Of a stretch of 64,000 nucleotides of DNA, positions 57,943-64,000 are shown piece after piece. How positions within the stretch are numbered: position 1 is the stretch's first letter; the number at the start of each line of letters is the position of its first letter. Below the pieces are notes generated by a model that saw nothing but the letters and a program-made list of their open reading frames with translations, was not told the DNA's origin and did no database searches. The stretch is from NCBI GenBank assembly GCA_964491925.1, contig CAZBGZ010000003.1:22234-86233 (forward strand), in the 5' to 3' direction. Made by a program: the position numbers and the translations under genes. Source of the stretch: an uncultured Candidatus Saccharibacteria bacterium (GTDB taxonomy: Bacteria > Patescibacteriota > Saccharimonadia > Saccharimonadales > JAGQNJ01).

Positions 57943-59580
57943 ATGAATAAGGTCGCTCATTATTTGCAGGAACATTTATTAGGCGAGGTCGTGACGTCTG
58001 CTGATGCTAGGAAGTATTTTTCGACGGATGGGGGTGTTTTCCAATTAATGCCGGCAATGGTTGTCTATCCACAAAATGAAAATGATGTGAGGAAAACAGC
58101 TAAATTTGCTTGGCAATTAGCAGAGAGAGGCCGTCCACTAGGCATCACTGCACGTGGGCGCGGTAGCGACCAGGCAGGGGCAGCTATTGGCGAGGGGATA
58201 ATATTGGTTTTCCCGGCGCATATGAATAAGCTTATCGAGCTCGATTCTCGCTCTGGTGATGTTGTTGTAGAGCCCGGCCTTGTGTACGCCAAGCTGCAAC
58301 AAGCATTGCACACTCATGGGCGTTTTTTGCCTCCATTTCCATCATCAATCGAGTTTTCGACTCTTGGTGGTGCAGTATCTAACAATGCTGGGGGCGAAAA
58401 AACCCTAAAGTACGGCAATACCCGCAATTACACGAGGTCACTCAGAGTTGTTCTGGCTAATGGAGAAGTGATTGAGACCGGTCGATTGACAAAAAGAGAA
58501 CTCAGCAAAAAAATGGGTTTATCGACTTTCGAAGGCGAAATATATCGTGCCCTAGATGGGCTAATAGATGACAACAAAGATATTATCAATAATATGACCC
58601 TTAACGTCAGTAAAAATTCTGCCGGTTACGATATTCAAGACATCAAACAGAAAAATGGTTCGTTTGATCTAACGCCGTTGTTCGTAGGATCGCAGGGAAC
58701 ACTAGGAATAGTTACCGAGGCTGTACTGGGGACAGAACCTTACAACCCCAACACTACACTTATAGCTGCATTTTTTGATGATATCGATTCAGCTCAAAAA
58801 ATAGTTATGGAGATTAATAAGTTGCCTGATCAACCCTGCGCCTTAGAAGTGGTAGACGATAATCTGCTAAATTTATTGGACAACATCAACCCTAACCAGT
58901 TAAAGGGAATAGTCGAGAAACCATTCCATAAATTAATTGTTTTAATAGAATTCGATAACCAGAGTGACCGCGTACAAAAGCGAATGAGCAAACGTACGAC
59001 CAAGATTTTGCAAAAACATGGTGTGACATTCCAGTTAGAAACTAATAGTGCCGCCAAAGATAAGCTGTGGAAGATTCGACACAGTGCCGCGTCTGTTATT
59101 ACTCATACGGAGGGTAAATCAAAAGCATTGCCGATAATCGAAGACGGAATTGTTCCATCTGAAAGATTGGCAGAATATATGGACGGTATTTATAATATAT
59201 TTGATAAGTATCATCTAAAAGTTGCTATTTGGGGTCATGCCGGCAATGCCAACTTACACATGCAGCCATTTTTAGATTTGTCAGCTGTCGGCGACCGCCA
59301 AAAAGTATTTAATATCATAGATGATTATTACAACTTGGTTATTGGCCTAGGTGGCAGTACGAGTGGCGAACACAGTGATGGACGTTTGCGTGCTCCATAC
59401 CTAAAACAATTATACGGTGATGAGGCCTATGGTTTGTTCGAAAAAATTAAAACAATTTTTGATCCGCACAACATTCTAAATCCTGGCGTTAAAATTGGCG
59501 TAACTATCGAGGACATAAAGCCGCTACTACGCGAAGAATACTCAATGGATCATCTTTATGACCATCTCCCCAGGAGCTAA
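57943..59580 (+). CDS. FAD-binding oxidoreductase (GlcD/D-lactate dehydrogenase-like)
   Basis: 545 aa with an FAD_binding_4-like N-domain (ARGRGSDQAGAAIG, GGAVSNNAGGEKTLKYG) and C-terminal HAGNANLH ... GEHSDG. Confidence 0.8.
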   Translation: MNKVAHYLQEHLLGEVVTSADARKYFSTDGGVFQLMPAMVVYPQNENDVRKTAKFAWQLAERGRPLGITARGRGSDQAGAAIGEGIILVFPAHMNKLIELDSRSGDVVVEPGLVYAKLQQALHTHGRFLPPFPSSIEFSTLGGAVSNNAGGEKTLKYGNTRNYTRSLRVVLANGEVIETGRLTKRELSKKMGLSTFEGEIYRALDGLIDDNKDIINNMTLNVSKNSAGYDIQDIKQKNGSFDLTPLFVGSQGTLGIVTEAVLGTEPYNPNTTLIAAFFDDIDSAQKIVMEINKLPDQPCALEVVDDNLLNLLDNINPNQLKGIVEKPFHKLIVLIEFDNQSDRVQKRMSKRTTKILQKHGVTFQLETNSAAKDKLWKIRHSAASVITHTEGKSKALPIIEDGIVPSERLAEYMDGIYNIFDKYHLKVAIWGHAGNANLHMQPFLDLSAVGDRQKVFNIIDDYYNLVIGLGGSTSGEHSDGRLRAPYLKQLYGDEAYGLFEKIKTIFDPHNILNPGVKIGVTIEDIKPLLREEYSMDHLYDHLPRS

Positions 59581-59588
59581 AGGCTAAA

Positions 59589-59870
59589 ATGTCATCGATA
59601 GTGGAAATACTGGGGGTTATTGGGGGAGTATTTTACCTAATCGCATTTGTTGAAGTATCTGCTGGCGAGTGGAATGGACGATCTTATCGATATGAGATAT
59701 TCAACCTAATCGGCGGCATATTGCTGTTGTACTATTCGATAGCGAAGCATGCCTACACTAATATAGTCCTCAACATTATCTGGATAGTAGTCGCGCTGTA
59801 TGTGATAAGAGCGATAATAAAACGACATAAAAAACGTCGGATTATCAGAAAAACTAGGAAGAAACGATAA
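59589..59870 (+). CDS. small two-TM membrane protein with K/R-rich tail
   Basis: 93-aa ORF with hydrophobic helices and the C-terminus KRHKKRRIIRKTRKKR. Confidence 0.45.
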   Translation: MSSIVEILGVIGGVFYLIAFVEVSAGEWNGRSYRYEIFNLIGGILLLYYSIAKHAYTNIVLNIIWIVVALYVIRAIIKRHKKRRIIRKTRKKR

Positions 59871-59878
59871 ATCCTAAA

Positions 59879-59898
59879 TGGTGTGCGAGAGAGGATTC
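59879..59898 (-). pseudogene. 20-nt fragment of the tRNA-Leu 3' end (T-loop to CCA)
   Basis: The plus strand TGGTGTGCGAGAGAGGATTC matches 60056-60075 at 19/20 positions. The sequence diverges completely beyond that. Confidence 0.55.
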
Positions 59899-59961
59899 CT
59901 TCATCTTCCGCTAGCGACAAAATTACTTTTAGTAATTGCGCATGCGGGCAAGTAAGTAAAA

Positions 59962-59987
59962 CGGAAACAGCCATTGGGCTGTTTCCG
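59962..59987 (-). terminator. 11-bp hairpin CGGAAACAGCC-CAAT-GGCTGTTTCCG followed by TTTT (minus strand), downstream of tRNA-Leu
   Basis: Read directly. The T-run follows the hairpin on the minus strand only. Confidence 0.55.
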
Positions 59988-60055
59988 ACCCGAGGGTTCG
60001 AACCTATTCGATCAAAATTCTTCATGGTCCTGCCAGAAAACAGAACAACGAAGAA

Positions 60056-60139
60056 TGGTGCGCGAGAGAGGATTCGAACCTCCACACCTTGCGGCACCAG
60101 TCCCTCAGACTGGCGTGTCTACCGTTCCACCACTCGCGC
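60056..60139 (-). tRNA. tRNA-Leu(GAG), type II, CCA encoded
   Basis: Manual cloverleaf. Acceptor GCGCGAG/CTCGCGC. Anticodon arm CCAGT-CTGAGGG-ACTGG. 13-nt variable arm. T-arm GGAGG-TTCGAAT-CCTCT. Confidence 0.9.
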
Positions 60140-60149
60140 ATCGGATATA

Positions 60150-60178
60150 AGCATACTGGGGACAGCGGACTTTTTCAA
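60150..60178 (-). promoter_or_regulatory. candidate promoter TTGAAA-N17-TATGCT for tRNA-Leu
   Basis: Read on the minus strand. The -10 box ends about 10 nt before the mature tRNA 5' end. Confidence 0.35.
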
Positions 60179-60187
60179 GAAGCCAGC

Positions 60188-60216
60188 TTGAATTTATCTC
60201 TGTTGTAAGCTATTAT
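60188..60216 (+). promoter_or_regulatory. candidate promoter TTGAAT-N17-TATTAT for the tRNA-Val/Phe cluster
   Basis: Read directly, 23 nt upstream of tRNA-Val. Confidence 0.4.
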
Positions 60217-60239
60217 TCTGCGGTACCATTAATCGTAAT

Positions 60240-60316
60240 GGGCGGTTAGCTCAGTTGGCTAGAGCACCTCGTTTACACCGAGGGGGTCACAGGTTCGAGT
60301 CCTGTACCGCCCACCA
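60240..60316 (+). tRNA. tRNA-Val(TAC), CCA encoded
   Basis: Manual cloverleaf. Acceptor GGGCGGT/ACCGCCC. Anticodon loop TTTACAC. T-arm ACAGG-TTCGAGT-CCTGT. Confidence 0.9.
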
Positions 60317-60368
60317 TTAACAATTTATTGCGCAAAACTATTGCGGCTCTTTAGCTCAGTTGGTAGAG
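60317..60368 (+). repeat. 52-bp direct repeat, copy 1 (28-nt spacer plus first 24 nt of tRNA-Phe)
   Basis: TTAACAATTTATTGCGCAAAACTATTGCGGCTCTTTAGCTCAGTTGGTAGAG is identical to 60424-60475. Confidence 0.9.
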
Positions 60369-60423
60369 TTTGAAGAGCATGTAAAATCTGGTTGGTCCCT
60401 AGGGACACAAAGAGACTGCACAT
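60345..60423 (+). pseudogene. decayed tRNA-Phe paralogue
   Basis: The acceptor/D-arm is identical to tRNA-Phe. CAGAGGC (the 5' anticodon stem) is deleted. The degenerate T-arm CTGGTTGGTCCCTAGGG is not followed by a matching acceptor 3' strand or CCA. Confidence 0.6.
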
Positions 60424-60475
60424 TTAACAATTTATTGCGCAAAACTATTGCGGCTCTTTAGCTCAGTTGGTAGAG
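60424..60475 (+). repeat. 52-bp direct repeat, copy 2
   Basis: Identical to 60317-60368. The period is 107 bp. Confidence 0.9.
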
Positions 60476-60527
60476 CAGAGGCTTGAAGAGCCTTGTGTCC
60501 CCGGTTCGAGTCCGGGAGGAGCCACCA
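60452..60527 (+). tRNA. tRNA-Phe(GAA), CCA encoded
   Basis: Manual cloverleaf. Acceptor GGCTCTT/AGGAGCC. Anticodon arm GAGGC-TTGAAGA-GCCTT. T-arm CCCGG-TTCGAGT-CCGGG. Confidence 0.9.
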
Positions 60528-60590
60528 ATATAAATATAGTGTGTCAGTATTTTCTGCTGACCATTTTTTGTTAGGGCACAAAGCCTTGTT

Positions 60591-60676
60591 GTCACGTCCC
60601 GCGACCCCGTAGCAACATCTTTGCAAACCAGTTTGCAAGAGTTGACTACCTTGCGAACTGCCACAGGCAATTCTCA
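60591..60676 (+). other. conserved structured module, copy A (unknown function)
   Basis: GTCACGTCCCGCGACCCCG, then 39 nt containing a hairpin, then CCTTGCGAAC and the hairpin GAACTGCC-ACA-GGCAATTC. Homologous, with identical spacing, to minus strand 63880-63797. Confidence 0.4.
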
Positions 60677-60704
60677 CCCGGTTCGAGTCCGGGAGGAGCC
60701 ACCA
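60677..60704 (+). pseudogene. exact duplicate of the tRNA-Phe 3' end (T-arm, acceptor strand, ACCA)
   Basis: CCCGGTTCGAGTCCGGGAGGAGCCACCA is identical to 60500-60527. Confidence 0.75.
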
Positions 60705-60719
60705 CCGTGAATACATTTC

Positions 60720-60750
60720 AAAACTCTCATAATTTTTGTGAGAGTTTTTT
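60720..60750 (+). terminator. intrinsic terminator after the tRNA-Phe mosaic
   Basis: CTCTCA-TAATTTTTG-TGAGAG followed by TTTTTT. Confidence 0.7.
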
Positions 60751-60793
60751 AATATACTACAAAAGCGGTTATGTTATACAATAAATATAAATC

Positions 60794-61594
60794 ATGAATA
60801 AAAATAATACAGAGGAACATTTAGAAGCATTTCTTTCTTATTATAGTGGGGATGTGTCAGCTGCAACGGCAGCCCTGCGCTCCTTCGCAATTAAAAAACA
60901 AAAACCCAAACACGAAGCAACTGGTCCAGTGGTTGTCTCGTTAGAAAATGTATCAAAAAAGTATAAATTAGGACGAGAAAATGTGAATGCTTTAAAAAAT
61001 GTTTCTTTAGAAATAAAACAAGGCGAGTTCGTTGCAGTTACAGGCTCTAGCGGTAGTGGCAAAAGTACGCTTTTGCAGTTAATCGGCGCGCTAGATAAAC
61101 CTAGTGAAGGACGAATCGTCGTCGACGGACAAGATATAAGCACGCTCAGTGACGGTAAATTGTCAGTTTTTCGCAACAAGACAGTTGGGTTTGTGTTTCA
61201 GTTTTTTTACCTACAGCCTTTCTTGGACATACAAACCAACATAGAGGTTCCCGCAATGTTTGCGCGAACAAAAAAATCAGAACGGATTGAAAGGTCCACA
61301 GAACTAGCAACGGCAGTAGGCTTAGTCGATAGGGTCGGCCATAAGCCAAAAGAACTTTCTGGTGGTCAGATGCAACGAGCAGCGATCGCCAGAGCGCTTC
61401 TTAACAAGCCAAAAATTTTACTAGCTGATGAGCCTACTGGTAATCTGGACAGCAAGAACGGCATGGCCATTATTGACTTGTTTGAAACTGCAAGGCAGAA
61501 ATTTGGAACTACTGTAATAATGGTTACTCATGATCCGAAGATTGCATACCATGCCGATAGGGAAATAGTGCTTCATGATGGAGAGATAGCATGA
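60794..61594 (+). CDS. ABC transporter ATP-binding protein (MacB/LolD/FtsE-like)
   Basis: 266 aa with Walker A GSSGSGKST, LSGGQMQR and LLADEPTGNLD, plus an N-terminal extension of about 45 aa. Confidence 0.85.
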   Translation: MNKNNTEEHLEAFLSYYSGDVSAATAALRSFAIKKQKPKHEATGPVVVSLENVSKKYKLGRENVNALKNVSLEIKQGEFVAVTGSSGSGKSTLLQLIGALDKPSEGRIVVDGQDISTLSDGKLSVFRNKTVGFVFQFFYLQPFLDIQTNIEVPAMFARTKKSERIERSTELATAVGLVDRVGHKPKELSGGQMQRAAIARALLNKPKILLADEPTGNLDSKNGMAIIDLFETARQKFGTTVIMVTHDPKIAYHADREIVLHDGEIA

Positions 61595-63528
61595 TTACAC
61601 TGAAAGATGCCAGTGTTTTGGCTGTGACAAAATTACGTACGCGTAAGGTCCGATTATCCGTGACGGTCATTATTTCTGGCCTATTGTTTTGTGTCCTGTC
61701 TACAACCTCATTTGTTGCACGAGGAGCCTTCAAGAGTTTGAATAGTTTTTCTCAAGAAGGTCTTGGTGACAGATTCTTGACTTCGGCCACCACAATGACA
61801 AATTTTGATGCTCCCTCAAATAAAGAGGTTGTTCGACGTGCCGAGGATTTGCAGAAAAAGATAATCACTCAAAAGAAACTAGAAGCAAAACGTCTTGGGA
61901 TCGAATATGATGATAAAACAGAACCCAGGGTCATAGACGAATTCGACGGTCAAAATGGCAAAGAAAAAGTCGTTAATTCGCAGACTGTTATCGGCCAAAA
62001 AGTAATTAACGATTATTTAACAGAGCATCCCCTGCCTGGGAAGGCTGATTTAGCCAAACTGTCGCGTTCATATAACCCGAGTAATTATTTCGAGATCACG
62101 CCTATCAATATGCCTATTTCTGTTTCAAGCGGTGTGCCATCCTCGCTACAGGTATTGAAAGGGGGCGAAGAGCGTTTTGATCAATCACAGCAGCCTCAGG
62201 ACCCATACACCGCAACCGGGCTTAGTTCGTTCACATCTTCTTGGAATTTGGCAGACCCTAGCCTACTCAGCCCGTTTCTTCTTCAGGGAAGTAGTCTGGC
62301 TATTAGCAAAGACGGAAGATTACCGGTTTTGGCGCCCTACACTGCGGCCGAAGAACTATTGGGTCTCCGGCCTCTGCCTAGCACAGCCGAATCAACAGAA
62401 AAAATTGAACGAATTAGGTTTGTCCGTGAAAAGATAAAAGACAATGCTTTTAGCGTGTGCTATCGCAACGGTGAATCAGTATCTATTATTCAAGATGTTG
62501 TTGCTACAAACTCTGAAATAGAAAAAAACAAAAATGATAAAACATACCAAAAGCCAGCTTTTATTAAATCGTTGCCATCGAAGCCTTGTGGAAATGTTGG
62601 CGTCAAGCAAGACACTAGGACATTCGGTGAGAAAACACTGGCATCTAAACAAGCACAGTTTGATAAAATTTTCGGCAAGGAAGACCCTAAAAGCCAAGTT
62701 TTTAACTTCAAAGTTGTTGGAATCGTGCCCGATCCACCTAGCAATGCCACGTCAGGTATACAGCAGCTACTGGGCGGGATACTGGGATCGACAATCGGTA
62801 GCGGTTGGTACTCGCCGACAGAAATTATTAAAAGTAACACAACCATAGGTTCAATCTTCAAACCCACTGGCCAGCCTAACGGTATGCCACATCAATACAT
62901 TGTAGAGTTTAATTCGGCAGACGATGCAAGAGGATTTATAGAGAATGGAAACTGCAAATTGGATTTTGGCACAGGCCTCAATGGGGAAGACCCTATGAAA
63001 CAGTGCGTAAAAGATGGTAAATATTTTTCCATCACACCCTTCGGCAGTAGTAGCTTGGCCCTGAACGATATCAAAAAGGGTTTTAGCAAGTACTTTAAAG
63101 ACGCTGCAATAGGTTTTGCAGTTATTGCATCGATAATAATGATGGGTACGGTAGGCCGAATTATTGCGGATAGTCGCCGCGAGACTGCAGTCTTTCGTGC
63201 AATCGGCGCCAAACGCAAAGACATATCGCAGATTTACATAGGGTATGTAATGTTGCTCTCAGGATTGATTGGGTCTTTTGCGTTAATAACAGGGTCGGTG
63301 ATAGCATTTATCGCTAATTCTAGGTGGACAGAAAACCTAACAGTTTCTGCTCTAATTAATTTCAATTCGCAAGATCTTACTAGAAAATTTACGATTTTCG
63401 CTCTTGACCCTAGGGACATATTCGTTCTGCTGGGAGTCATACTATTAGCAGGGCTTGTTAGCGCAGTGTTGCCTCTACTCAGCAATCTTCGACGTAACCC
63501 GATAAAAGATATGCGAGACGAAAACTAA
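61591..63528 (+). CDS. ABC transporter permease, FtsX/MacB-type with large extracytoplasmic domain
   Basis: 645 aa. TM1, then an extracytoplasmic region of about 450 aa, then a C-terminal FtsX domain (AVFRAIGAKRKDI plus 3 TM helices). There is a 4-nt overlap with the ATPase gene. Confidence 0.8.
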   Translation: MITLKDASVLAVTKLRTRKVRLSVTVIISGLLFCVLSTTSFVARGAFKSLNSFSQEGLGDRFLTSATTMTNFDAPSNKEVVRRAEDLQKKIITQKKLEAKRLGIEYDDKTEPRVIDEFDGQNGKEKVVNSQTVIGQKVINDYLTEHPLPGKADLAKLSRSYNPSNYFEITPINMPISVSSGVPSSLQVLKGGEERFDQSQQPQDPYTATGLSSFTSSWNLADPSLLSPFLLQGSSLAISKDGRLPVLAPYTAAEELLGLRPLPSTAESTEKIERIRFVREKIKDNAFSVCYRNGESVSIIQDVVATNSEIEKNKNDKTYQKPAFIKSLPSKPCGNVGVKQDTRTFGEKTLASKQAQFDKIFGKEDPKSQVFNFKVVGIVPDPPSNATSGIQQLLGGILGSTIGSGWYSPTEIIKSNTTIGSIFKPTGQPNGMPHQYIVEFNSADDARGFIENGNCKLDFGTGLNGEDPMKQCVKDGKYFSITPFGSSSLALNDIKKGFSKYFKDAAIGFAVIASIIMMGTVGRIIADSRRETAVFRAIGAKRKDISQIYIGYVMLLSGLIGSFALITGSVIAFIANSRWTENLTVSALINFNSQDLTRKFTIFALDPRDIFVLLGVILLAGLVSAVLPLLSNLRRNPIKDMRDEN

Positions 63529-63611
63529 AGTTCGCCTGTTGAGATAACAGTGTTGAGTTTGGTTACAAAACTCTTTATAATATTCCTCTGTTCAGCGAGA
63601 TAAGTATTTAC

Positions 63612-63639
63612 CAAATTCGAGAGAGGATTCTCGAATTTG
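63612..63639. repeat. 11-bp perfect inverted repeat CAAATTCGAGA-GAGGAT-TCTCGAATTTG containing a 13-mer of the tRNA-Leu T-arm
   Basis: CGAGAGAGGATTC (63618-63630) is identical to 60063-60075 and 59886-59898. It lies 4 nt upstream of tRNA-Gly. Confidence 0.5.
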
Positions 63640-63643
63640 AAAA

Positions 63644-63720
63644 GCGGGTGTAGCTCAGTTGTTTAGAGCGCGTCCTTGCCAAGGACGAGGCCAGGGGTTA
63701 GAGTCCCCTCACCCGCACCA
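63644..63720 (+). tRNA. tRNA-Gly(GCC), CCA encoded, non-canonical elbow (U19/A56)
   Basis: Manual cloverleaf. Acceptor GCGGGTG/CACCCGC. Anticodon arm CGTCC-TTGCCAA-GGACG. D-loop AGTTGTTTA. T-arm AGGGG-TTAGAGT-CCCCT. Confidence 0.85.
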
Positions 63721-63723
63721 ATC

Positions 63724-63750
63724 AAAAGACGTCCCGATGGGGCGTTTTTT
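63724..63750 (+). terminator. intrinsic terminator after tRNA-Gly
   Basis: ACGTCCC-GAT-GGGGCGT followed by TTTTTT, with an A-run upstream. The hairpin is weaker on the minus strand. Confidence 0.65.
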
Positions 63751-63796
63751 GATTGGTATGATGGGGTTCAAACTCCTGCCCAAAAGGCCAGGGCGA

Positions 63797-63880
63797 GAAC
63801 AGCCTTTTGGCTGTTCGCAAGGCAGCCATCCGGTGCAGCTGTGCTGCTAGCCGCGATGTTGCGGGGTCGCGGAACGTTAC
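63797..63880 (-). other. conserved structured module, copy B (unknown function), inside a GC-rich 63754-63900 segment
   Basis: The minus strand reads GTAACGTTCCGCGACCCCG, then 39 nt with a hairpin, then CCTTGCGAAC and the hairpin GAACAGCC-AAAA-GGCTGTTC. It is followed by another hairpin and a tail ending ACCA at 63754. Confidence 0.4.
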
Positions 63881-63965
63881 TAGAGTCCACATTACCCAAC
63901 CAAGCATAAGAATTATGCTCTCGATATTTGGTATTATTGTTATGCTATAATTTAGTGAATTAATT

Positions 63966-64000
63966 ATGAAAATAAACAAACATGCATTATTCGCATCTTT
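63966..64000 (+). CDS. start of an ORF truncated by the window end
   Basis: ATG 63966 (MKINKHALFAS...) lies 14 nt downstream of TGcTATAAT (63943-63951). Only 11 codons are visible. Confidence 0.3.
   Translation, partial: MKINKHALFAS

Follow-up and report, generated by a model that had tools for sequence, protein, structure and literature searches.

The window analyzed here, a 64,000-nucleotide (64-kb) stretch of contig CAZBGZ010000003.1 from a Saccharibacterium (TM7), carries a tRNA-Phe(GAA) gene with an incomplete copy of itself on either side. One live gene and two dead partial copies make up this array, as had been proposed in an earlier note made from the letters of the sequence. We lean toward reading the array as nonfunctional tRNA-Phe debris that was built in layers, with a single working copy in the middle. 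The mechanism has been resolved in part, and the locus is fairly ordinary tRNA debris at a recombination hotspot. The unexpected result is a conserved structured element of about 90 nt, here termed Y, that splits the downstream copy, together with the recurrent architecture of sense and antisense tRNA pieces around it; Y is the potentially novel part.

One live tRNA-Phe gene between two partial copies

In the tRNA detection that the earlier note had put forward as a check, ARAGORN and Rfam recognized only the intact tRNA-Phe at 60452-60527, and neither ARAGORN nor Rfam RF00005 (E values of up to 10) returned a tRNA call for 60345-60423 or 60562-60704. A functional second tRNA, or an intron-containing or split tRNA, was rejected as an explanation for these stretches: besides the lack of a detector call, the 5' copy has no anticodon stem and the 3' copy has no 5' half. 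The gene belongs to a cluster of tRNA-Leu(gag), tRNA-Val(tac), tRNA-Phe(gaa), and tRNA-Gly(gcc) that recurred among the loci of relatives, which were collected by a pattern scan with one genome per species and amounted to 23 loci, all of them from Saccharibacteria or Patescibacteria (related sequences are designated by L numbers). The T-stem of the live gene, CCCGG/CCGGG, is unique among the 22 complete tRNA-Phe genes compared (L003-L025).

Two sets of exact repeats tie the fragments to the live gene. A 52-nt segment (TTAACAATTTATTGCGCAAAACTATTGC followed by GGCTCTTTAGCTCAGTTGGTAGAG), composed of a 28-nt spacer and nt 1-24 of tRNA-Phe, is present without a mismatch at 60317-60368 and 60424-60475 and stretches to 57 nt at 96% identity; no such repeat arose in 100 shuffled sequences. 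The last 28 nt of tRNA-Phe, from the 5' strand of the T-stem through CCA, likewise occur in two exact copies, at 60500-60527 and 60677-60704, which are separated by 149 nt and of which none would be expected by chance. Both repeats are as the earlier note had described them, and so is its pair of spacer motifs, TAGGGACACAAAG at 60400-60412 and TAGGGCACAAAG at 60572-60583. What did not hold was its designation of the hairpin at 60720-60748 as the only terminator, since a terminator-like hairpin with a T-run also stands directly 3' of the live gene. A tandem array with a 107-nt period was not reported by TRF, since the units cannot be aligned over their second halves.

The upstream copy ends in a shared fold-back

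The upstream pseudo-tRNA-Phe of the window lacks CAGAGGC, the 7 nt that form the 5' strand of the anticodon stem. Homologues of this pseudo-copy were found directly upstream of the live tRNA-Phe gene in four other Saccharibacteria sequences (L006, L026, L027, and L028), the last three being metagenome contigs retrieved with a pattern that required two tandem tRNA-Phe 5' halves. Up to the anticodon loop, each of the five copies matches the tRNA with few or no differences, and in all of them the homology ends after ...GAAGAGC. Beyond this point the tails consist of a variable linker of 11 to 16 nt, a short hairpin, which reads GTCCC-loop-GGGAC in the window and L006 and has diverged in L026 and L028, and then GGGACACAAGGCTCTT or a variant of it. 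This 16-mer is the exact reverse complement of tRNA-Phe nt 35-50 and matches at 16 of 16 positions in L006 and L027, while the tails of L026, L028, and the window have diverged. The window tail carries GGGACACAAAG, a degraded form of GGGACACAAGGCTCTT from which the GGCTCTT part is gone; taken on its own, it is not significant as antisense tRNA, and its assignment rests on homology to the tails of L006 and L027. The second half of the pseudo-copy thus appears to be a fold-back common to several lineages rather than a decayed T-arm and acceptor, and the degenerate T-arm that had been read into it is the palindrome GTCCC-TA-GGGAC, behind which the homologues continue as the reverse complement of nt 35-50.

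The spacers that follow the pseudo-copies begin with TTAACAAT or TTTA...CAAT and resemble the Val-Phe spacers of genomes that have no pseudo-copy, a TTAACA or TTTACA start being common to the pseudo-Phe-to-Phe and the Val-Phe spacers. This likeness fits an old tandem duplication of a unit made up of the spacer and tRNA-Phe, and the duplicated unit does include the native 28-nt spacer, as expected of such an event. Over the first 52 nt, a stretch that takes in the functionless spacer, the two units of the window are 100% identical, and the rest can be aligned only with many gaps, so that an even decay along the whole length of a duplicate is not what is observed. The abrupt change from identity to nonalignment argues for a recent patch of conversion or exchange and against decay, and the 7-nt deletion is located exactly at the right edge of this 52- to 57-nt patch. 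The alternative of tandem duplication followed by decay, which the earlier note had offered, is therefore half right: the old duplication is borne out by the spacer homology, and uniform decay is contradicted by the common fold-back and the sharp switch in identity. Position 32 of the tRNA, which varies between T and C, agrees between each pseudo-copy and the live gene of the same genome; the partial copies and the live tRNA-Phe gene undergo concerted evolution. As RNA, the pseudo-copies fold no better than shuffled sequences (z of -2.2 to +0.4), and their alignment shows no covariation; in L026, L027, and L028 the pseudo-copy stands behind promoter-like boxes.

The downstream copy is split by a structured element

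The downstream piece corresponds to tRNA-Phe nt 39-76, split at position 48/49 by the Y element. It had been described as a 28-nt fragment; those 28 nt are exact, and the full extent proved to be greater, since nt 39-48 are also present beyond the structured insert of 90 nt. The 5' portion is GCCTTGTTGTC (60583-60593), which equals sense tRNA-Phe nt 39-48 with one inserted base (24 of 2,000 shuffles). The motif just ahead of it, TAGGGCACAAAG, is not significant on its own as antisense tRNA-Phe. A full-length decayed sense copy that would add nt 15-48 was considered and rejected, the head of the region (60562-60582) being significant neither as sense nor as antisense. Copies of the tRNA-Phe 3' end (G[GA]GAGGAGCCACCA) lie at +228 to +272, counted from the tRNA-Phe start, in the window and in L012, L020, L021, L023, L025, and L026, and L028 has a degenerate one. 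These fragments carry the T-stem variant of their own genome's tRNA, which is CCGGG in the window, CTGGG in most of the others, and CGAGG in L021.

The reverse complement of the DNA that splits the window copy is homologous to the DNA between tRNA-Leu and an exact 20-nt tRNA-Leu 3' fragment in L025, and a covariance model of this element, Y, matched further copies (Table 1). Aligned copies share a layout of GGTGAGA, hairpin H1 (8 to 10 bp), CGCAAGG, the long hairpin H2 (~17 bp), GGG, and hairpin H3 (6 bp, with a conserved G-U), and the unpaired motifs GGUGAGA, CGCAAGG, and CGGGGUC are conserved. On a plain MAFFT alignment, RNAalifold returned 34 pairs, 21 of which have compensatory double changes. 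In the alignment fitted to the model, which leans toward structure and next to which the MAFFT figure is the more conservative, 30 of the 34 pairs are compensatory and 89.6% of the cells are paired (35 to 48% in slid controls; 0/500 shuffles). The copies contain 26 G-U pairs and 5 A-C mismatches, an excess indicating that the fold belongs to one strand and is RNA-like. Y is a structured, strand-specific, multicopy element, and the compensatory changes indicate that it is under selection for its structure.

Y copies were found beside tRNA genes (tRNA-Leu, tRNA-Gly, and tRNA-Val) in eight other sequences. All 12 of the 12 copies adjoin tRNA genes, a proportion to be read in light of the fact that, outside the 64-kb window, nearly all of the DNA searched flanked tRNA clusters. 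Most copies lie inside a partial copy of the adjoining tRNA, usually in the T-loop (for tRNA-Leu, GTGGAG/Y/AAGTCC), and these Y-bearing partial copies are located either 3' of the live gene and its terminator or 5' of it behind a promoter-like box. In the tRNA-Gly or tRNA-Leu leaders of L026, L084, L004, and L082, Y directly follows TATAAT-like boxes. At L082:4020-4620, a tRNA-Leu(cag) gene, part of which is hidden by a stretch of Ns, lies between two Y-bearing partial copies of itself, and the two Y paralogues differ by compensatory changes. L026:2840-3003 and L084:6007-6195 contain a pseudo-tRNA-Gly (nt 1-24), Y, the anticodon-arm-like sequence CCTTGCCAGGCCAAG, and then the live tRNA-Gly; in both, the pseudo-Gly/Y unit directly follows the TATAAT-like box, and Y would there be transcribed as a tRNA leader. 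The Phe-side copy of the window lies on the antisense strand, behind a terminator, and without a promoter match.

Searches with Rfam 15 gave no notable non-tRNA match in window positions 59000-61500 (E values of up to 10) or in 63400-64000 and seven related loci (E values of up to 1). At these permissive E values, transfer-messenger RNA (tmRNA), Y-RNA-like RNAs, T-boxes, signal recognition particle (SRP) RNA, 6S RNA, and self-cleaving ribozymes were rejected as identities for the downstream elements. The aligned copies show no terminal inverted repeats; their junctions overlap tRNA bases (GGG or GAG), and a short target-site duplication is possible. An origin in phages or plasmids was likewise rejected on the collections searched, in which mobile elements of Saccharibacteria are poorly represented: motif scans of IMG/VR gave nothing or chance matches in coding regions, and BLAST against phage and plasmid sequences matched the live tRNA only. 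An IMG/VR scan with the 16-nt H3 motif gave 45 matches, none of which showed further similarity to Y by BLAST.

A second insert family, termed X, is about 140 nt long and occurs ~80 to 260 nt after tRNA-Phe in L012, L020, L021, L023, L025, L026, and L028. X opens with a diverged antisense copy of the 3' third of the tRNA and ends with GTCTGGGAGGAGCCACCA, and its core is inserted in the T-loop of a sense copy. No Rfam family matches X, and a formal structure for it was dropped because MAFFT and RNAalifold supported only a GAACTGG/CCAGTTC stem. In the literature, no description of Y, X, or the pseudo-Phe family was found. It is conceivable, though short of probable, that Y and possibly also X represent an undescribed class of Saccharibacteria elements that spreads among tRNA genes (Leu, Gly, Val, and Phe). 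Such an element would be a three-hairpin RNA of ~90 nt that sits in the T-loop or variable region of partial tRNA copies, rides on tRNA promoters and tRNA processing, and makes or exploits sense and antisense partial duplications; the arrays would then be its footprint rather than random decay.

Table 1. Positions of tRNA genes, tRNA-derived pieces, Y copies, and associated features in the window and in related sequences.
Feature	Sequence	Position	Strand	Basis or remark
tRNA-Leu 3' fragment	window	59879-59898	-	GAATCCTCTCTCGCACACCA; 19/20 identical
Decayed inverted copy of nearly whole tRNA-Leu	window	59948-60010	+	between live tRNA-Leu and the 3' fragment; hairpin at 59962-59987
tRNA-Leu(gag)	window	60056-60139	-	ARAGORN, Rfam
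Divergent candidate promoter, would serve tRNA-Leu	window	60178-60150		consensus scan only
Candidate sigma-70-like promoter for the tRNA-Val/pseudo-Phe/tRNA-Phe unit	window	60188-60216	+	TTGAAT-17-TATTAT; consensus scan only
tRNA-Val(TAC), intact	window	60240-60316	+	ARAGORN; Rfam, 70.3 bits
Spacer copy 1, 28 nt	window	60317-60344	+	begins TTAACAAT, like Val-Phe spacers of relatives
Pseudo-tRNA-Phe, sense part	window	60345-60378	+	nt 1-24 exact, then anticodon loop and first stem bases; TTGAAGAGC
Pseudo-tRNA-Phe, tail	window	60379-60423	+	variable linker, palindrome GTCCC-TA-GGGAC (60395-60406), then GGGACACAAAG
Spacer copy 2, 28 nt	window	60424-60451	+	before live tRNA-Phe
tRNA-Phe(GAA)	window	60452-60527	+	sole functional copy; ARAGORN; Rfam, 67 bits
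Terminator-like hairpin, then T-run	window	60543-60571	+	GTCAGTATTTTCTGCTGAC; hairpin at 60543-60561; directly 3' of live tRNA-Phe
TAGGGCACAAAG, then GCCTTGTTGTC	window	60572-60593	+	TAGGGCACAAAG resembles antisense nt 50-40 and the upstream-tail motif
Y element between tRNA-Phe nt 48 and 49	window	60590-60679	-	~90 nt; boundaries ambiguous by ~3 nt; covariance model, 103.6 bits, copy in training set
Exact tRNA-Phe nt 49-76	window	60677-60704	+	T-arm, acceptor 3' strand, ACCA
Bidirectional terminator-like hairpin	window	60720-60748	both	AAAACTCTCATAATTTTTGTGAGAGTTTT; hairpin and flank conserved in L083
tRNA-Gly	window	63644-63720		ARAGORN, Rfam
tRNA-Gly terminator	window	63728-63750
Second Y element (with the first, n = 2 in the window)	window	63791-63881	+	downstream of tRNA-Gly and its terminator; covariance model, 75.9 bits
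Decayed tRNA-Gly 3' fragment	window	63881-63902	+	TAGAGTCCACATTACCCAACCA; T-loop through CCA; 0/2,000 shuffles
Y copies, one match each	L020, L021, L025, L026			covariance model
Y copy, second in L025	L025			tandem, without H3; seen by eye
Y copies	L079 (n = 1), L082 (n = 2), L084 (n = 1)			covariance model
Y copy, weak	L004 (n = 1)			covariance model
Serine recombinase genes	L003, L017, L023, L080, L084	L003:5111-6667, L017:4353-5897, L023:5038-6582, L080:10826-11635, L084:6260-7759
LAGLIDADG-like open reading frames	L082, L014, L017, L018, L023	L082:7121-7822, L014:414-1109, L017:1054-1689, L018:2558-3184, L023:7058-7726

Similar arrangements at tRNA-Leu and tRNA-Gly

Fragments of the same kind accompany the neighboring tRNA genes of the window. 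The tRNA-Leu 3' fragment starts 177 nt downstream of the matching position in the live tRNA-Leu, an offset equal to that of the tRNA-Phe fragment; a common 177-nt unit at the two genes was rejected because the units do not align despite their equal offsets. In L077, whose flavin adenine dinucleotide (FAD) oxidase is 97% identical, the same Leu element is present and the fragment is exact (20/20); there the fragment comes almost directly after the stop codon of the oxidase gene. The inverted copy of tRNA-Leu that lies between the live gene and its 3' fragment was matched by 2 of 2,000 shuffles when compared with antisense tRNA-Leu and gave no signal with sense tRNA-Leu.

Downstream of tRNA-Gly, the order is terminator, a weak antisense stretch, GGCCAGGG (tRNA-Gly nt 45-52, which precedes the second Y), Y, and the decayed 3' fragment. 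Just 5' of tRNA-Gly, at 63613-63638, is the palindrome AAATTCGAGAGAGGATTCTCGAATTT, which holds 13 nt that are antisense to the tRNA-Leu 3' end.

Relatives and the ancestral arrangement

In nine relatives (L005, L011, L014, L015, L017, L024, L079, L080, and L082), tRNA-Gly follows tRNA-Phe after only 1 to 40 nt. The gap in other species is 75 to 1,587 nt and holds assorted small open reading frames, and that of the window is 3,116 nt. The close spacing is taken as the probable uninterrupted state and is cited in favor of layered debris. In L083, the ABC operon and the terminator and flank upstream of it are as in the window (permease, 93% identical). When L083:1-135 is compared with window positions 60640-60796, L083 has only TGGGACAC plus AGGAGCCACCA between the T-run of the tRNA-Phe terminator and the flank, a remnant that consists of GGGACAC and the last 11 nt of the tRNA, without Y and without the T-arm. 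The window thus has, and this close relative lacks, a block of ~120 nt that comprises nt 39-48 of tRNA-Phe, Y, and the T-arm; the Y block is an indel between close relatives. The comparison of orthologous loci that the earlier note had called for yielded nine relatives with a Phe-Gly gap of 1 to 40 nt and one locus without the Y block.

The FAD-oxidase gene upstream of the cluster is syntenic in most relatives at 55 to 73% identity; closer relatives reach 77 to 97%. Between it and the tRNA-Leu element, the window has a 93-amino-acid open reading frame of the CBU_0592 family (59589-59870), which is also present in L025 and L084 and absent from the close relative L077. An ABC ATPase and an FtsX permease (60794-63528) sit between tRNA-Phe and tRNA-Gly. 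The permease gene is sporadic, with one relative at 93% identity, the next at 46% or less, and 41 homologues at E values below 1e-30, and the ABC genes fill the same Phe-Gly interval in the distant relative L084. These genes were considered as cargo of an island bounded by the Phe repeats, a possibility ruled out by their position and by the synteny in L084.

Five relatives have a large serine recombinase gene (~500 to 520 amino acids, with Resolvase and Recombinase domains) whose end reaches or falls within the 3' end of tRNA-Gly(gcc); this looks like an integrative element that targets tRNA-Gly. In five relatives, an open reading frame of ~234 amino acids resembling LAGLIDADG homing endonucleases lies directly upstream of tRNA-Leu(gag) in the same orientation; the window has none.

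How the array may have arisen

The layered history that we favor would begin with an old tandem duplication of the spacer and tRNA-Phe, the comparison with relatives suggesting that it gave rise to the ancestor of the upstream pseudo-copy. In the duplicate, everything 3' of the anticodon loop would then have been replaced by a fold-back (inverted) copy of nt 50-35, and the rearranged pseudo-copy would have been inherited by, or exchanged among, several Saccharibacteria lineages. More recently, a patch of 52 to 57 nt (the spacer and nt 1-24) may have been copied from the live unit to the pseudo-copy by gene conversion or unequal exchange, with an imprecise right-hand junction removing 7 nt of the anticodon stem. 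The downstream 28-mer has likewise been kept identical to the live gene, its lineage-specific T-stem included. Y may be a small mobile or exchangeable structured element that can persist only in tRNA copies that are partial and redundant, since an essential tRNA gene present in one copy would be destroyed by it. The upstream pseudo-copy would be transcribed as a long spacer of the Val-Phe precursor and discarded in tRNA processing. The downstream copy and its Y are probably silent, because they lie behind a terminator and Y is on the wrong strand.

Several points weigh against this account. It names no process for the antisense tRNA pieces or for the entry of Y into partial copies, and Y has no linked transposase, integrase, or reverse transcriptase. 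Perfect 24- to 40-nt direct repeats at a distance of only ~100 nt should vanish quickly by slippage; the upstream pseudo-copy nevertheless persists in at least five lineages, and its persistence despite deletion-prone repeats hints at selection, and hence at function rather than pure debris. The unpaired motifs of Y and its position in the tRNA-Gly leaders of L026 and L084 would fit a small RNA useful to the host as well as they would fit a selfish element. The difference between L083 and the window could be an insertion or a deletion, and either state may be derived. Finally, the antisense assignments of both short motifs in the window are not significant on their own.

The explanation ranked second, behind layered debris, is classical site-specific integration, which we consider unlikely. 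Here tRNA-Phe would have served as attB, the gene would have been regenerated with the native fragment displaced, and the element bodies would have been deleted to leave attL and attR ~150 nt apart. The earlier note had put forward such a scar while leaving the 5' duplication unexplained by simple 3'-end integration, and on the latter point we agree; the source of the 5' pseudo-copy would have to be an element that restores the 5' half or, as in tRNA-dependent lysogeny, one that disrupted the host gene and brought along a tRNA-Phe of its own. The extent of the 28-mer, from the 5' strand of the T-stem through CCA, is consistent with this, being the usual extent of att identity blocks (Islander, PMC4383910). 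So is the way in which the two partial copies complement each other: the upstream one runs to nt 40 and the downstream one from nt 39, and the pair amounts to a single tRNA that is split at the anticodon loop and encloses a live copy. There are precedents for a host tRNA that was split and complemented by an element-borne tRNA (PMC10865867) and for a mobile element that left a 5' piece of a tRNA upstream (PMC3293823), the gene content of the Phe-Gly interval differs between species, and the serine recombinase genes that abut tRNA-Gly in L003, L017, L023, L080, and L084 mark the cluster as a real integration hotspot. At and around the array, however, there is no recombinase: Pfam searches of the neighboring open reading frames found none, and tblastn with the serine recombinase of the relatives found nothing in the whole 64 kb, as the earlier note had held for the vicinity of the array. 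Viral contigs in IMG/VR have no exact match to the 3'-end pattern, even with T-stem variants allowed, and phage and plasmid sequences match only the intact tRNA, in collections where Saccharibacteria mobile elements are poorly represented. Nor is there foreign cargo between the repeats, where only a terminator, short tRNA-derived pieces, and Y are found; the ABC genes lie outside, and the terminator follows the intact gene. The spacer before the live gene is the native Val-proximal spacer, which argues against a foreign, element-borne tRNA, and the antisense pieces match each cognate tRNA, unlike a fixed element end. The compact layout also recurs at tRNA-Leu and tRNA-Gly and in other species: a spacing of ~150 to 190 nt is seen in at least seven species and at three tRNAs, and identical deletions of whole elements are implausible. 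Homologues of the pseudo-copy do occur in relatives, as in the shared array that would have spoken against a scar in the earlier note's own terms, but they are patchy, and a conserved multi-tRNA operon was not found.

It is equally doubtful that the flanking pieces are functional RNA elements rather than relics. The pseudo-Phe would then be a conserved tRNA-Phe leader whose tail, antisense to nt 35-50, could base-pair either with the tRNA as it is being made or with the 5' half of the pseudo-Phe itself, and Y would be a small structured RNA made from tRNA promoters and freed by tRNA-processing enzymes, with the partial tRNAs as processing handles. The covariation, strand-specific G-U pairs, and conserved unpaired motifs of Y, the L082 paralogues that stay folded through compensated changes, and the promoter-like boxes ahead of Y (L026, L084, L004, and L082) and of the pseudo-Phe (L026, L027, and L028) all agree with this, as does the survival of the pseudo-Phe despite its direct repeats. 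In the window, however, the features look broken: the pseudo-Phe is short of 7 nt and its tail short of GGCTCTT, the Phe-side Y is antisense, behind a terminator, and lacking a promoter match, and the Leu-side element is decayed. The folding and covariation results for the pseudo-Phe also speak against it, no Rfam family matches, and both the pseudo-Phe and Y are absent from most relatives, close ones included. That the repeats are an assembly artefact of misjoined or duplicated metagenome reads is very improbable. The upstream repeat is bracketed by the breakpoints of two independent Logan contigs (60269 and 60472), so that the ~200 nt of 60270-60471 are covered by neither and have no independent confirmation; such a gap is what would be expected at a real repeat that exceeds the assembler k-mer. 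Positions 60472-63673 are reproduced exactly in an independent Logan assembly of another run (SRR14932608), and homologous pseudo-Phe and downstream fragments are present in independent assemblies of other species. Layered debris therefore remains the reading toward which we lean.

Significance and relation to known systems

For annotation, the result is that one of the three tRNA-Phe-like stretches is a gene and that the others are fragments and not island boundaries. For the genome biology of the Saccharibacteria, ultrasmall members of the candidate phyla radiation (CPR), it identifies the core tRNA cluster as a busy recombination site, with serine-recombinase elements next to tRNA-Gly and genes resembling homing endonucleases next to tRNA-Leu, along with tRNA fragments in sense and antisense orientation and a structured insert that is conserved. 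If Y is an expressed RNA or a mobile element that targets tRNA genes, it would constitute a new RNA family and a bacterial parallel to the mobile introns and split tRNAs of archaea, and it would offer a testable route to the disruption and duplication of tRNA genes.

The locus has single features of each of several known systems and the defining set of none. Like the att fragments that integrative elements leave at tRNA genes (PMC9897764; Islander, PMC4383910), it repeats the 3' portion of a tRNA gene, from T-arm to CCA, in direct orientation beside an intact gene, and its tRNA cluster is an integration hotspot in relatives, with a serine recombinase at tRNA-Gly. It differs in that no integrase or island lies between the repeats, which are 149 nt apart, and in having a 5' partial copy, antisense pieces, and a layout that recurs at several tRNAs and in several species. 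The tRNA operons of Escherichia coli include 178-bp repeats distal to tyrT, each of which ends in the last ~19 nt of tRNA-Tyr. As at our locus, 3'-terminal tRNA segments that include CCA lie ~180 nt downstream in the absence of mobile-element genes; the E. coli repeats are simple tandem units, whereas here there is a three-hairpin insert at several tRNAs and in both orientations, plus an upstream 5' pseudo-copy.

In tRNA-dependent lysogeny (PMC10865867) and in the model for disruption of tRNA-Thr in Caldiarchaeum (PMC3293823), 5' and 3' tRNA pieces likewise occur with an intact tRNA of the same isotype, and the working gene is preceded by a leftover 5' fragment. The elements in those cases are of kilobase scale and have an integrase or recombinase, in contrast to the ~200 nt between the pieces and the native upstream spacer seen here. 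The introns of archaeal tRNAs are found in the T-loop, the variable region, and the D-arm, and the archaeal splicing endonuclease is not known from bacteria. Noncanonical tRNA introns and split tRNAs of archaea (reviewed in PMC4090602) resemble Y in that structured inserts interrupt tRNA-like sequences and one insert family occurs in different tRNA genes. The Y-bearing copies, in contrast, are truncated or decayed and cannot give rise to a tRNA, and the intact gene has no insert. With bacterial miniature inverted-repeat transposable elements (MITEs), repetitive extragenic palindromes and their mosaics (REP/BIME), and Rickettsia palindromic elements, Y has in common that it is short, hairpin rich, noncoding, multicopy, and patchy between close relatives; unlike them, it has no terminal inverted repeats or evident target-site duplication, and it combines a position adjacent to tRNA genes with an RNA-like G-U asymmetry and conserved unpaired motifs.

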